From positions 32,001 through 96,000 of IMG/VR virus record IMGVR_UViG_2907202186_000003: 64,000 nucleotides of DNA; one strand, given 5' to 3'. Made by a program: the position numbers and the translations under genes. Source of the DNA: a virus. Its lineage: Duplodnaviria; Caudoviricetes. Numbering within the stretch: position 1 is the first letter of the stretch; every line of letters begins with the position of its first letter. Shown here in pieces: positions 31,261 to 59,449 of the stretch. The notes below the pieces were generated by a model. The model had not been told where the DNA came from, searched no databases, and saw only the letters and a list, made by a program, of their open reading frames with translations.

Positions 31261-32259
31261 TTATGCTTCGGTTTTCTCTACTGCTTTGAGGATATCATTC
31301 AATTCGCCCAACACTACTGACATAATCTGAACGTGCGATTTAGCAAAATCAGTAACCTTCTTGCCTTTTCCAAGATTTTTCTCAATAATTTCATTAACTT
31401 CTTCTGATTTATTAAGACCATACAAAGTTTGCCCAGCTTTAAGAATACCTTTTTTCAATTCATCGAAATCCAAACTTTCAGATTCAAGTGTCTCTTTTTG
31501 CTCTTCATAAGATACTGCCTTAATCCCCTCTGCTTCCTCTTGCTTTTTAATGGCTTCAATAACAGCATTCTCAAGGTTTTCAGCAGTGAACTCCTGAAGA
31601 TATGGATTAATATAATCAAGCTTGCTACGAGCGAAGAAGTCTTTTGTTTCAGCCATATATCCACTCGACTTAATTACATTGCCTTTTTCATCAATGCCAT
31701 TGGAGCGAAGATATACAACGATCTCACTATTGTCAATAACAGGTGCAATGGCACGTTTATCCCCTTTAGGAACAATCTTTCCACGCTTTTCATCAAATGT
31801 TTCATGGGCAATAAATACGACAGTATATCCCGCATTGAGCAGTTTATCGATTTCTTCCCAGTATTCCATCTCATACTCTTTCCAAAGACCATATCCACCG
31901 CGACCTTCAGCAATAGTTTCAACTTCGAATTTATCACACACATATCTAGAACAATAACGAGCAGATGCTTCAACCTCATCGAAGATGATTGTTTGATACA
32001 TCTCTTTTGCTCTTTCTAAATTTGCTTTACTTGTGAGCTGCTTATTGATTTTTTTGAAATCTGCCCAGTTATTAACTGGCAAGAAATTAACTCCAGCGAT
32101 TGCTTTGATACCTTTTTCAAAACCTAAGTAGAATGGTTTTTTCATCCGTGTTGCTTGTTTTGTTTTTCCTAAGTTATTACTTCCGTAAATAGTAATTGTC
32201 TTTCCTTCAAGTCCATAAGAAACAACCGAAACCTGCGGATTAAAAATGTCAAATATCAT
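31261..32259 (-). CDS. AAA_24/Sak4-like NTP-binding protein (YorG-like)
   Basis: YGSNNLGKT, FEKG, IIFDE, FIAH. Confidence 0.82.
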   Translation of the reverse strand: MIFDIFNPQVSVVSYGLEGKTITIYGSNNLGKTKQATRMKKPFYLGFEKGIKAIAGVNFLPVNNWADFKKINKQLTSKANLERAKEMYQTIIFDEVEASARYCSRYVCDKFEVETIAEGRGGYGLWKEYEMEYWEEIDKLLNAGYTVVFIAHETFDEKRGKIVPKGDKRAIAPVIDNSEIVVYLRSNGIDEKGNVIKSSGYMAETKDFFARSKLDYINPYLQEFTAENLENAVIEAIKKQEEAEGIKAVSYEEQKETLESESLDFDELKKGILKAGQTLYGLNKSEEVNEIIEKNLGKGKKVTDFAKSHVQIMSVVLGELNDILKAVEKTEA

Positions 32260-49542: not shown

Positions 49543-51401
49543 TATCTAATTATTACTTTAATTAGTTCTTACTCTGTTCACGGAAGAATAATTGCTCATA
49601 TGCATCCGTTACTGCATCAACTGGATTATCGTATTGTTTTGATATCGCGCGTTCACGACTCTCAATCTGTTCCAGCATACACTTATACAAACCAACAGTA
49701 TGCAAATAGAGAATGTAATCATCTCCCTGAATATTTACAATGGAGACTTGAACCTTATTGTTGTTGATTTCACTCATCGATAGCATATCCTCACCTCCTC
49801 TCAGTGGTTATGGATGAAAGGATTATTTAATTACAAATTCTATTTCCTTATATTCAAACTTATCACCATGTCTTGAATCATAGAACTTTTCCCAAGCTAG
49901 CAGATCCTCTTCTTTTTCTGTTTCACTAAATACCATTGATTCAATTAAGTTGTCAGTATATTCACCGACTTTTCCAATCCATACATTTCCTTCTACACTC
50001 TGGATGCTGCACCACTTAATAAATTTATCTCCAACTTTGATTACATATCTGCTCACTATGTATCACTCCCCATGAAAGGATCATTTCATCAATACTTCAA
50101 TGCTTTTCCCTTGCCTATGGTCAATTTCCATGCAAGTAAACATCCTTCTTCAAGTTCTTGTTTGTCAGTAAAACACATATCACACTGCCCGTTTCTAAAA
50201 ATCTCGCACTGTCTCTCAACAATGTTATGAAGAGTTTTTCTTTTGATAATTCTAGCAGCAGTTCCCTTAATATATCGTTCCTCGGTGTAAACTGTTATGT
50301 ATTCTGGATCATTTTGCAGCTCTAAAGTACTTCTTTGTGGTTTAACTGTTTTTTCAAACCGTGCGGCGAACATGTAAACACGATTATTAAAGTCATCATT
50401 TACGTACACAGCCCTCATTGGAGCAGTTACATTTGTATCTTCCTCAATCTGATACACTTTATTAAGTGTCAGATTGTCTGTGGCTGCTGTGCATTTTCCC
50501 CACCATTTATCTCCTTTTAATTGTTCTCTCTCCCATCTTTGTCAATTTTCGCTCCAGCTCTAATATAAACTTCCAAGTTTCTCGGAATCTTAAACTGATT
50601 ACGATCAAATATTGGCATTTGTTCTTCCGGAATAGAGCCACCAGACACATGAAATACTTCTCCATTCCATTGTCTAACGAAACCCCAGAATCCATAATAA
50701 GGTGATTCTTTATCAATAATTTCAATCAGTTTACCTATTGAATTTTCAGGCTTCATTTAAAAACAACTCCTCATGAAAAGATCCTATGATTTAGTCTTGA
50801 TCCAGCGGATCAATACGGTTTTCATAGCAGTAAGATTCTCAATTCCTTAGTAAAAGATCATTTTAAAGGAAACTTTGTGTATAGTTCCTCTCTAAACTCG
50901 TCATTTTCGATTAGGTAAAATTCGTCAATGATACTTCCTTGATCGTCCCAGATTTTCATTTTCCAATCGTGCAGTATTTCAACAGAAGTTCCATAGTATT
51001 TAGTCAACGAATCAAATTTAAACTTTACTTCATTATATTGTGTACTTTCTTCGGTAACATCAATCCAATCAGACTCTAAAACATGAATACCGAACAATAT
51101 CATAAAAAATCACTCCTCATTAAAATATAGTTTCATCAACTTAAATTGCTACAAGTTGGATGTTGGCTTTTTCTCCAGGAATAATAACCAAATCACCGTC
51201 TTCCTCACACATCTGTTTAAACAATATCATTTGTTCGTATTTCGGAAAAGTATATGTATTCATTACTAGTTTACCTAGTACCTTTTCAACAACAGCGATT
51301 TTATACATTTCAATATCACCTCTTTGTTTTGTTAGTTAAATTATACCATATGATTTTATATTATGTCTATATTTATTTTGTTAAATATAAAGGAATAAAC
51401 A

Positions 51402-52037
51402 TCATCCTTTATATTCTGTATCGCTATTCAAAATAGGATCGAAATATTTTTCCTCGGCTCGTTTACGAGCTTTTATAGCATCTTCCTTTTCGGAAAAATA
51501 CCCTAGAGATATTTGTTTCCCCTTAAATCCAATGTGTGCCGTCCATTTTTGACGGGATTCATTCCATCGTACACCCTTGTGTCCACTTTTATTGCCTTTA
51601 TGGAGCTTTGCCTTCAAAGCGGTTTTCCTCGTCCCATCCACACGGTCAGTTTTTTCATGCTCTCTTGCACCTATATCACGTTTTTCCTCTCTATTACACC
51701 CACAACTCTTATAATACCCAGCCCGCAGGCTGGCCCCGAGAACATATATAACTTCCCCACACTTGCAACGACATTCCCAAAGCCTTGTTCCGTTTGCCCC
51801 TCTTTTGTCGCTTAGTCGGATAACCTTCAAATCACCAAAATCCATGTCAGACAAGTCTTTCATTCTTGATGTGGTCCTATGGCTGCCATATTCCAATTCA
51901 GCGTCTTTTCGCGCTTGTACGGCGTCCTCGACATCAGTGAAATAGCCTAAATATTTTCGTTTTTTATTTACAAATATATAAGCACGATACTTGCCTTTGC
52001 GGCTGTCATAACTAACGTCTTTGTGATCATCTATCAT
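51402..52037 (-). CDS. AP2-domain DNA-binding protein
   Basis: Two AP2 repeats (KYRAYI...LGYF...AVQARK and KWTAHI...LGYF...AIKARK) flanking CRCKCG/SCGC. Confidence 0.8.
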   Translation of the reverse strand: MIDDHKDVSYDSRKGKYRAYIFVNKKRKYLGYFTDVEDAVQARKDAELEYGSHRTTSRMKDLSDMDFGDLKVIRLSDKRGANGTRLWECRCKCGEVIYVLGASLRAGYYKSCGCNREEKRDIGAREHEKTDRVDGTRKTALKAKLHKGNKSGHKGVRWNESRQKWTAHIGFKGKQISLGYFSEKEDAIKARKRAEEKYFDPILNSDTEYKG

Positions 52038-52246
52038 TTTCCTACCTCAAATCGGCTTGCGAACCAAAGCGGAGTTAAATTACCTGTCCGCCCCTTGATT
52101 ACAGCATCTGGCCGTGAAAACCGCTTTTCCTTACCGCGGTAAGATGGATTCAACATCGCCTTAGCTGTCTTACTTACATTTTGCTGAGTGGTACCGATAT
52201 GTTCAGCAACCCACTCAGCTCCAACGTATTCAAGGGGCGGTGTTAC
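52034..52246 (-). CDS. Small HTH protein (Aca-like), not in the ORF track; GTA at the presumed start
   Basis: Frame VTPPLEYVGAEWVAEHIGTTQQNVSK...PDAVI...PLWF; overlaps the upstream stop and the downstream ATG. Confidence 0.55.
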   Translation of the reverse strand, partial: VTPPLEYVGAEWVAEHIGTTQQNVSKTAKAMLNPSYRGKEKRFSRPDAVIKGRTGNLTPLWFASRFEVGK

Positions 52247-52497
52247 TTTACCAGTGTCACGCCTATTGGATTATACCAGTCACACATTTCTGACTCATCA
52301 GTGATTTCTTCGTACTCATCATAAACATCCCACACCAGAATATATTCGTTATTTTCTGCATCAACAGCGGTTGCTTTGTAGTGGGGGCGTTCGCCGGAAA
52401 CTCCATCAATATATGGGTCCTGTGTGGTCTTCAAGGTTTTCCCTTCAAAATCAATCACCGTCGAGTTAAACTCGTTCAGATCGCTAAAAGTTTTCAC
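52243..52497 (-). CDS. Small acidic protein, candidate anti-CRISPR
   Basis: GTG start after AGGAGG; D/E-rich (DEYEEITDESEMCDW); next to an HTH gene and the CRISPR repeat. Confidence 0.45.
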   Translation of the reverse strand: MKTFSDLNEFNSTVIDFEGKTLKTTQDPYIDGVSGERPHYKATAVDAENNEYILVWDVYDEYEEITDESEMCDWYNPIGVTLVK

Positions 52498-52552
52498 TAA
52501 ATTTTTCCTCCTTGACATCATATTTAATATGATTTAATTTAAAAATGTAAGT

Positions 52553-52584
52553 GTCGCACCCCGTGCGAGTGCGTGGATTGAAAT
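52553..52584 (+). CRISPR. Solitary type I-C CRISPR repeat (SRU/Racr-like), not an array
   Basis: GTCGCACCCCGTGCGAGTGCGTGGATTGAAAT, 32 bp; TTGACA-17-TAATTT upstream (52512-52540); terminator at 52607-52627. Confidence 0.88.
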
Positions 52585-52657
52585 ATTCTTATAGTATTTC
52601 AGCAGGAGGCCCTTTACGGGGCCTTTTGTGTTACCATCCCGATGATGCCCTCTTAAT

Positions 52658-53059
52658 TTAAAATAGTTGCGCAATCACGAGAGCGTCCTTTATTACAATC
52701 TCTCCGTGATCAGGATCGTCATGGCGTCCCAGGCGCTTACTGGCGATTATGTAACAATGATCGGTACCAAAAATTTGGTCGCGCGCCTTTTCAGCTGCGA
52801 AGGAAGAATATTCGTAAGTCTGGCTGATTGACATGTCCCAGGCGGATGTACCGTTAAGAAGTTCCATCTCCTCGTATTCCTCTGTCCCGTATTTAGGGAA
52901 CTCCCTTTCATCTTCGCGATCAGCGTTATGGCGGCTGTATTCGCATTCCTCACCGATCGCGCGTTCCTTGTTTTCAAAACGAAGTCCGATAAAATAGAAT
53001 TCATTCTCATTGGCGACGTAGATTTCTTTAGCCTCCGCGTACATTTCTGCGACTGTCAT
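52658..53059 (-). CDS. Acidic protein, candidate anti-CRISPR
   Basis: Start MTVAEM after GGAGG; E/D-rich; first gene after a palindrome-containing promoter. Confidence 0.45.
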   Translation of the reverse strand: MTVAEMYAEAKEIYVANENEFYFIGLRFENKERAIGEECEYSRHNADREDEREFPKYGTEEYEEMELLNGTSAWDMSISQTYEYSSFAAEKARDQIFGTDHCYIIASKRLGRHDDPDHGEIVIKDALVIAQLF

Positions 53060-53108: not shown

Positions 53109-53141
53109 ATTATATCACACAAGGTTGTGCTACACAACCTT
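53109..53141 (-). promoter_or_regulatory. Promoter with a perfect inverted-repeat operator
   Basis: TTGTGT-17-TATAAT with extended -10 TG; AAGGTTGTG-CTA-CACAACCTT overlaps the -35. Confidence 0.75.
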
Positions 53142-53558
53142 TTCTTGAAAATATTATAATTTCCATACACAAATAACTCCAAGCAACAAAACTAACTCGC
53201 TTGGAGTTTGATAAAATTAATCTTTCATTAAGAAAGACAACCCCGAAAATAAGATTGTCTTTGCAATATAAATTATTCAGTTTCAGTCCAGTACATGATT
53301 TTCACATGATTTGGAGTGGTTTTTTCTAACCTCACAATCTGTTCTTTTACATAATCATGTACTTCTCTCTCTTCTCCATTTGGAACATCGTAAATGCTTG
53401 CTCTTTTGTTGTGCTGTACTCTGTCAACAAATAGAATGTAATCAACTTCGAGTGTCATGATTGCCAGCCCCTCTATATGTAATTATTTTCCTGTTATATC
53501 TTTACGCTTGTCGGAGTCAAAGTTTACTAGCCGAGAGATTGTTATCAAAAAAATAAAG

Positions 53559-59286: not shown

Positions 59287-59367
59287 AATATTCTCTCCTT
59301 TTATTAAAGATTTTACTTAGTGTTCAAATATACAATGTTACTAATTGTACCATTGTATATTTGTCTT

Positions 59368-59449
59368 GCCACCTAACCGCTCAATGTCAGCGGTTAACGC
59401 TCTAGGCTTAAGGCTCAATCCCGATATGTCGGGAACCGCCTAGACGGTT
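59368..59449 (-). ncRNA. Pistol self-cleaving ribozyme
   Basis: P1 AACCG/CGGUU with loop UCUAGG; P2 GCC/GGC; UUAAG-CCUAGA-GCG pseudoknot strand; P3 UUAACCGCU/AGCGGUUAG; G-U cleavage site. Confidence 0.88.

Follow-up and report, generated by a model that had tools for sequence, protein, structure and literature searches.

The stretch of DNA considered here (the window) comprises 64,000 nucleotides of the IMG/VR virus record IMGVR_UViG_2907202186_000003 (positions 32,001 to 96,000), and the whole of it has a GC content of 34% as against 48% for the genome in which it resides. The low-GC island to which it belongs extends over about 138 kb (from roughly 165 to 303 kb on C11) and contains genes of phage replication and recombination; it encodes a DnaB-like helicase, a DNA polymerase and Sak4-like, integrase-like and tubulin-like proteins, and is a very large prophage. 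Within the window lies a minus-strand operon whose elements occur, in the direction of transcription, in the order palindrome, promoter, ORF1, ORF2, HTH-like frame and AP2/HNH gene. The 160-nt gap between ORF1 and ORF2 is occupied by an intergenic unit, antisense to both genes, that is built around a single CRISPR repeat (Table 1).

Table 1. Features of the solitary-repeat unit and of the surrounding operon, with positions in the window
Feature	Position	Strand	Basis or remark
-35-like hexamer TTGACA	52512-52517	+	sequence reading; matches -35 perfectly
-10-like hexamer TAATTT	52535-52540	+	candidate from sequence reading; 3/6 matches
Type I-C CRISPR repeat, 32 nt	52553-52584	+	identity to Paenibacillus array repeats
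Canonical repeat stem	52555-52573	+	C.A mismatch from A16
Predicted 11-nt crRNA 5' handle TGGATTGAAAT	52574-52584	+	cleavage position from type I-C literature
22-nt pseudo-spacer (tail) ATTCTTATAGTATTTCAGCAGG	52585-52606	+	sequence reading
Middle hairpin, tail AGTATTTCA with 3' half of handle TGAAATATT	52578-52602	+	predicted fold
Terminator-like stem AGGCCC/GGGCCT, six pairs, 6-nt loop TTTACG	52607-52624	+	reading and fold
Terminator-like hairpin including T-tract TTTTGTGTT	52607-52632	+	T-tract on plus strand only
Operon palindrome, perfect, AAGGTTGTGTAGCACAACCTT	53121-53141	-	directly upstream of operon promoter
Operon promoter TGTGATATAAT	53109-53119	-	sequence reading
ORF1, 133 aa, pI 4.5	52658-53059	-	uncharacterised Bacillales (pro)phage protein family
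ORF2, 84 aa, pI 4.05, GTG start	52243-52497	-	conserved end CTGGTAAAGTAA at 52243-52254
HTH-like conserved frame, no start codon of its own	52037-52258	-	overlaps ORF2 end in -1 frame
AP2-domain / HNH-type homing-endonuclease-like gene, operon end	51402-52037	-	domain matches

The putative promoter hexamers of the unit are 17 nt apart, a further 12 nt separate TAATTT from the repeat, and the -35-like hexamer abuts the sequence AGGAGG (52507-52512), which on the other strand is the ORF2 ribosome-binding site. A preliminary description of this DNA had listed the two hexamers, a 32-bp repeat, 22 nt and a GC hairpin with a T-tract, all antisense to the flanking genes, and each of these was found in its place, ORF1 and ORF2 both being on the minus strand. 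The description had also given the unit a promoter of its own; the perfect -35 hexamer and the 17-nt spacing agree with this, but the -10 hexamer is weaker than had been implied, and neither promoter nor terminator was among the calls of a consensus scanner. Our guess is that the scanner missed the terminator since its stem can be extended into the T-tract. Both elements are thus put forward as readings, on the strength of inspection, the predicted fold and conservation in a second element described below. The RNA from 52546 to 52632 is predicted to fold into three hairpins (-32.9 kcal/mol, z = -3.6), and a search of Rfam with the region from 50 to 55 kb in the window yielded no matches even at E = 1.

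ORF1 belongs to a family of about 90 clusters, 120-147 aa in length, from Bacillales (pro)phages. Its AlphaFold2 model is of high confidence (pLDDT 93); Foldseek gave no row at E <= 0.001 against the PDB and a protein-atlas search returned nothing, and a wide search with VIA-align gave weak rows only (Z <= 4.4), among which ADP-ribosyltransferase folds were prominent (Arr, PARPs, Rhs ART toxins and Scabin). The invariant residues of the family include R27, S42, H101, Y103 and E120, and it is possible, going by the model, that ORF1 is a small ADP-ribosyltransferase. ORF2 is rare, with only 8 clusters among 5.8 billion proteins, and nine homologues (L094-L099 and L136-L138), which are 55-82% identical, end in an invariant CTGGTAAAGTAR. 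The HTH-like frame (DxGKVxPPLEYVGAAW...), which is strongly conserved, reads on beyond ORF2 in the -1 frame and at its beginning mostly has no usable start codon among the homologues; the arrangement suggests a programmed -1 frameshift at A_AAG, beside the stop codon, by which the acidic ORF2 product would be fused to a DNA-binding domain. The HTH-like domain occurs elsewhere as a stand-alone gene with a GTG start (L225) and as the C-terminus of a different protein (L223); it has no match in Pfam or NCBIfam, and its AlphaFold2 model is poor (pLDDT 48).

A palindrome, GTTGTGTAnCACAAC, is situated just upstream of a strong -10 hexamer in the window and, in related versions, before homologous ORF1 or ORF2-HTH operons at six other loci (L095, L134, L136, L137, L138 and L225), and the operon of a close relative (L224) carries a different one, GGTTGCATTGCGCAACC; the palindrome is probably the operator for the HTH-like protein. 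No protein of the operon or its neighbourhood matches a known Acr or Aca family, and the label acr-aca-like is therefore applied to the operon in respect of its architecture only. The window also holds 33 strict copies of an 18-bp palindrome, RTRAAA-N6-TTTHAY (e.g. at 50072, 53211, 54176 and 55532), of which that at 53211 is just upstream of the operon promoter and none falls within the solitary-repeat unit. In the close relative L224 the gap between ORF1 and ORF2 is 18 nt and contains no solitary repeat, and none is present either at six loci that have an ORF2 homologue or at five that have one of ORF1. Since relatives have the two genes 18 nt apart and without a repeat, the unit is regarded as an insertion into the operon.

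The repeat occurs once in the window, where no copies would be expected by chance, and no second copy was found anywhere in the 6.63-Mb genome of the lysogen with up to 9 substitutions allowed. Nor did this genome, which is 99.99% complete, give any profile matches for Cas1, Cas5d or Csd1/Cas8c, and the earlier statement that there is neither a second repeat nor any cas gene is thereby extended from the locus to the genome. The affinities of the repeat were established by a survey of 116 species genomes of the lysogen's genus (one representative per species, that of the lysogen included), which phage matches and named records indicate to be Paenibacillus. At up to 3 mismatches it was present in 31 of the 115 congeneric species, mostly in arrays of 19-95 copies, and Cas8c, and with it type I-C, is present in 43 of the 115. 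The closest relatives are the array repeats of the species G022 (94 copies) and G106 (86 copies), to which the window repeat is identical at 31 of 32 positions. With its internal GC-rich hairpin and a 3' end of the form ...GGATTGAAAT/C, giving an 11-nt handle that is identical to the genus consensus, the repeat has the type I-C format. In the species G018 (locus L067) an array starts about 180 nt after cas2 of a cas3-cas5d-cas8c-cas7-cas4-cas1-cas2 operon in which 7 of 7 Pfam families scored above the cut-off. By its sequence, then, the window repeat is of type I-C, a type linked in Paenibacillus to complete cas operons, as had been proposed, and it is solitary and borne by a mobile element, the prophage, in a layout that reads as a plus-strand transcription unit of its own.

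In the comparison with array repeats that had been suggested, the only difference from the G022 and G106 arrays is a substitution in the stem, G16A. It leaves C.A as the sixth of the seven stem pairs, which weakens the canonical stem, and an alternative 6-bp hairpin (-7.4 kcal/mol) becomes the minimum free energy fold. Three further congeneric genomes that appeared to have solitary repeats (G003, G016 and G052) turned out to contain degenerate or small arrays. In the type I-C locus of G022 itself there is a solitary full-length repeat inside the cas locus (L059:12595, plus strand), identical to the repeats of the 94-copy array and opposite to it in orientation, which may be a host crRNA-like regulator with an undegenerated repeat.

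A search for relatives of the unit, using the leader-plus-repeat pattern against viral, genome and metagenome collections, recovered one further member, in a prophage of Paenibacillus azoreducens KCTC 3829 (G007; L096 and L134). It is located upstream of the ORF2 homologue, is antisense to the operon and consists of TAGACA-17-TAATAT, a 12-nt leader, a repeat, a 20-nt tail and a terminator. Its repeat is a different I-C variant, GTCACTCCCCATGCGGGAGTGTGGATTGAAAG, whose 7-bp stem is intact. The two units can be aligned over their promoter hexamers, spacing and leader, both leaders ending in TGTAART, and the sequences of stem, tail and terminator differ. The P. azoreducens host has a type I-C system, and its array repeats end in ...GGATTGAAAG, with the same G-ending handle as the phage unit. 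Neither a search for handle-N9-17-TTTCAG in 401 Paenibacillaceae genomes, which disclosed no unit beyond that of P. azoreducens, nor one for the window repeat in 50,697 phage records, which gave no match, enlarged the family. In IMG/VR there are 14 contigs with solitary repeats of the same I-C type. One of these contigs (L161) and a Turicibacter MAG (L129) have a solitary I-C repeat with promoter, 22-nt tail and terminator, and their leaders and tails show no homology to those of the window unit. A metagenomic sequence (L322:377) has a solitary I-C repeat behind TTGACA-17-TATACT that runs directly into a ribosome-binding site and an ORF, so that this repeat lies in a 5' UTR.

Both phage RNAs are predicted to fold into three hairpins, the middle one being formed by the 3' half of the handle (UGAAA...) and the tail (...UUUCA), and the last base of the repeat covaries with its partner, being U-A in the window and G-C in the P. 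azoreducens unit. In an energy-based test with 2000 shuffles of each tail, a handle-pairing fold as good as the natural one came up 83 times for the window and 44 times for P. azoreducens. A simple count of the handle bases paired to the tail was discarded as a measure, AU-rich shuffles pairing equally often, and the 33 RTRAAA-N6-TTTHAY palindromes of the window do not include this hairpin. The crRNA-like RNAs of host I-C loci mostly have no hairpin between handle and tail. With two members of the family, the shared hairpin and its covariation are suggestive and no more.

In its layout the unit matches guide RNAs of the CreR and Cracr kinds, and the preliminary description had entertained a short guide repressing cas promoters as one of its possibilities. 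This was examined in 40 Paenibacillus type I-C loci (L053-L092), of which at least 14 contain CreR-like elements, divergently transcribed between cas3 and cas5d and made up of a shortened repeat, an 18-23-nt tail and a terminator. For 12 of these 14 host RNAs the site that best matched the tail in the 15-kb locus was flanked by TTC and was 50-150 bp away (e.g. an element around 5227 on the minus strand of L067 with its target around 5391), and those 12 targets agreed with the tail at 12-15 seed positions and were mismatched at positions 6 and 12. This fits an autoregulation of the cas5d-cas8c-cas7 promoter, and the 12 cases serve as a clean positive control of the guide test as well as of TTC as the PAM.

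The tail of the window unit behaved otherwise. With TTC and an 8-nt seed it gave one match in the 40 loci compared with 1.3 expected from shuffles, and that match (L058) was rejected as a target, being about 3 kb beyond the array and outside the cas operon. The five genomes whose repeats come closest to that of the window held no exact TTC+13 site, and in its own genome the tail had one 9-nt seed match as against 1.24 expected. None of the 14 host CreR-like tails begins with ATTCT or shares the seed of the phage tail, and the P. azoreducens phage tail has no match in the I-C locus of its own host. A protospacer for the 22-mer was sought in 50,697 phage records and none was found; nine matches to it in the 116 genomes at up to 3 mismatches had three mismatches each, no TTC PAM and a scattered context, and are attributed to chance. 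The proposal of a short guide acting on cas promoters is thus not borne out by a test that recovered the targets of the host RNAs, and the proposed search of cas promoters and phages for TTC-flanked 22-mers came up empty in both the 40 I-C loci and the phage records. A strain-specific target could nevertheless exist, as the survey took one representative genome per species.

There are two described kinds of viral RNA to which the unit may be compared. RNA anti-CRISPRs (Racrs) derive from viral solitary repeat units (SRUs), and their activity was demonstrated for nine candidates including the type I-C RacrIC1 (Camara-Wilpert et al. 2023, PMC10651486); the candidates were reported to cluster with acr genes, and about 90% of hosts with such prophages have CRISPR-Cas (PMC10651486). 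As in these SRUs, the window repeat matches a known repeat, is intergenic and virus-borne, has no other repeat nearby and is linked to no cas genes. Further points of likeness to the Racrs are the position behind a promoter-like site in a prophage with an anti-defence-like neighbourhood, the near-identity to repeats of the host genus and the proposed competition with crRNAs for Cas proteins. There are, however, differences. RacrIF1 acts through a 70-76-nt product from upstream of the cleavage site, which carries a Cas7f filament (PMC10651486), whereas the window RNA would have a leader of about 6 nt and most of its length downstream of the predicted cut, and because the leader is so short the RacrIF1 mechanism cannot be transferred to it directly. 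RacrIC1 is co-transcribed 11 nt downstream of acrIC5 (PMC10651486), whereas the window unit is antisense to its operon and has what appears to be its own terminator. In comparison with the published survey a lysogen without CRISPR-Cas is a minority case, and the supplementary files of that paper that were available for searching contain neither the window repeat nor the P. azoreducens repeat nor the word Paenibacillus.

The other kind consists of viral crRNA-like regulatory RNAs (Cracrs; Liu et al., bioRxiv 10.1101/2024.10.29.618823), which have host counterparts in the CreR/CreA RNAs (bioRxiv 10.1101/2023.03.10.532045). The window unit shares with them the single repeat, the short tail and the rho-independent type of terminator, and its 22-nt tail is within the 18-23 nt of the host CreR-like RNAs. 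It differs from them in that it has no PAM-flanked promoter target in the loci and genomes searched (taking at least 9-10 matching PAM-proximal nucleotides as the criterion), in that its tail is unlike that of any host CreR-like RNA and is predicted to pair with the handle, and in that its repeat is full-length and array-like, the repeat-like elements of host CreR RNAs being shortened. Virus-borne mini-CRISPR arrays also resemble it in being CRISPR repeats on viruses without cas genes, but these have at least two repeats around a full-length, virus-matching spacer.

In the light of these comparisons the reading that we prefer, and which we hold to be about evenly balanced between right and wrong, is that the unit is a decoy-type RNA anti-CRISPR of the Racr kind. 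It would encode an RNA of about 80-85 nt, a mimic of a type I-C crRNA precursor in which a short leader is followed by one full repeat, the 22-nt tail and the terminator. In a Paenibacillus cell with a type I-C system that the phage encounters, Cas5d would recognise the repeat hairpin and handle and would probably cut at the 3' base of the stem, the predicted position of the handle following from the Cas5d cleavage site given in the type I-C literature. Cas5d and other handle-loading factors would then be tied up on an RNA that could not nucleate a working Cascade, because the tail would be folded back on the 3' half of the handle and the terminator stem begins no more than 22 nt beyond the handle. 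The RNA would in this way compete with host crRNAs as a decoy rather than guide Cascade.

The unit rides in the anti-defence-like operon and would be dispensable in the present lysogen, and any target must be sought in the I-C systems of other Paenibacillus strains, because the lysogen itself is without CRISPR-Cas. The earlier idea of a crRNA mimic directed against the I-C system of the host accordingly survives in its first part, a crRNA-mimic anti-CRISPR being the best reading, but in its second part it meets a host that has no CRISPR-Cas at all. We infer transcription, binding and processing by Cas5d, and inhibition from the anatomy of the unit, the conservation of a single homologue and analogy. 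Support for a decoy comes from the 31/32 identity of the repeat, its solitary status, the prophage setting, the fold, the syntenic homologue and the lack of a detectable target. In its favour, too, are the plus-strand layout, the insertion into an operator-controlled operon of small acidic proteins and the precedent of an experimentally validated type I-C Racr. Against it are the -10 hexamer with its three matches, the silence of the scanner on both promoter and terminator, a leader too short for the RacrIF1 mechanism to be carried over directly, neighbouring proteins that match no known Acr or Aca family, a layout of repeat, short tail and terminator that is exactly that of the CreR/Cracr guide RNAs, and the G16A substitution, which through the C.A mismatch and the alternative hairpin could weaken recognition by Cas5d. 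The evidence from covariation is thin, because only two members of the unit are known.

It is a good deal more doubtful whether the two Paenibacillus elements define a distinct class of RNA anti-CRISPR, a "handle trap". Under this proposal the cleaved 5' handle would stay locked with the pseudo-spacer and be capped by the terminator stem, so that Cas5d and Cas8c would be sequestered and extension by Cas7 blocked, which differs both from the filament decoy of RacrIF1 and from the promoter silencing of the Cracrs. In a variant of the same proposal, the antisense repeat in the operon mRNA would pair with the repeats of host pre-crRNA.

The alternative with the most to recommend it, although we consider it unlikely, is a Cracr-type regulatory guide, in which the handle and 22-nt tail, once processed by Cas5d, would be assembled into a short Cascade that binds without cleavage to a partly complementary, TTC-flanked site and so silences the promoter of the cas genes, or of a CreT-like toxin, in a target strain. 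In architecture the unit is identical to CracrVA1 and the CreR RNAs of hosts, with one repeat, some 20 nt of tail and a rho-independent terminator, at least 14 of the 40 Paenibacillus I-C loci make use of such RNAs with tails of 18-23 nt, and candidate type I-C Cracrs have been reported (bioRxiv 10.1101/2024.10.29.618823). A decoy is nevertheless favoured over a guide because the phage tail has no TTC-flanked target in a test that works on the host CreR-like RNAs: 12 of 14 host controls were recovered, and the 40 loci, the five genomes and the genome of the lysogen held nothing comparable for the phage tail. The seeds of the host CreR tails are not shared with it, the P. azoreducens tail is unmatched in the I-C locus of its own host, and the predicted folds of the two elements have the seed region of the tail base-paired to the handle. 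Some weight, if rather less, must be given to the view that the unit is a non-functional relic, a repeat-spacer fragment from a host array that was acquired by illegitimate recombination or left over from a repeat-mediated integration or exchange and is now decaying between genes. The disrupted stem pair, the weak -10 hexamer, a lysogen with no CRISPR-Cas for the RNA to act upon and the existence of only two such elements across all the collections searched are all in keeping with a relic. Decay is argued against, however, by the maintenance of a repeat of 59% GC at 31/32 identity within a phage of 34% GC. The diverged second element, moreover, keeps the promoter spacing, leader, an intact stem, hairpin and terminator with a different repeat variant and tail, and the window tail is 22 nt long, where spacers are about 33-36 nt, and ends in a terminator specific to the plus strand.

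Two further explanations have less in their favour. The plus-strand RNA could act in cis as an antisense regulator, colliding or pairing with the operon mRNA, which has to pass through the unit on its way to ORF2, the HTH-like frame and the AP2 gene, and so tuning their expression, or the anti-repeat in the mRNA could pair with host pre-crRNA. The antisense placement of the unit within a single operon, flanked by ORF1 and ORF2, the -35 hexamer adjoining the ORF2 ribosome-binding site and a terminator that would be inactive on the minus strand, where it has no T-tract, can all be accommodated in this way; we find it very improbable, as it leaves unexplained both a near-perfect CRISPR repeat with the handle of the genus and the different I-C repeat variant in the second element. 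The least credible of the explanations, in our view, is a single-spacer guide in the style of a mini-array, by which the phage would turn a host's I-C system on rival phages or plasmids. There are precedents in mini-arrays carried by viruses and directed at their relatives (cited in PMC10651486), but the window unit has one repeat and a 22-nt tail, and its sequence has no protospacer in the 50,697 phage records and only scattered, PAM-less matches at up to 3 mismatches in the 116 genomes of the genus.

Phage solitary repeats are already a described class, represented by Racr and Cracr, to which the window unit adds a member, and current understanding is unchanged since both such repeats and their anti-CRISPR roles have been described. 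Should the unit prove active, a very large temperate phage would be the carrier of a type I-C RNA anti-CRISPR from the Firmicutes, and the unit would provide a compact test case for distinguishing decoy from guide among phage crRNA mimics. Paenibacillus offers matched material for the purpose in its cognate I-C systems, its native CreR-like regulators with mapped targets and two natural variants of the phage RNA. The operon, with ORF1 and with ORF2 and its HTH-like frame, is marked out as a place in which to seek new anti-defence proteins. Elsewhere in the window, on the minus strand at 59367-59434, there is a full-length match to the pistol ribozyme (Rfam RF02679), which scores 38.8 bits against a gathering score of 34.5.
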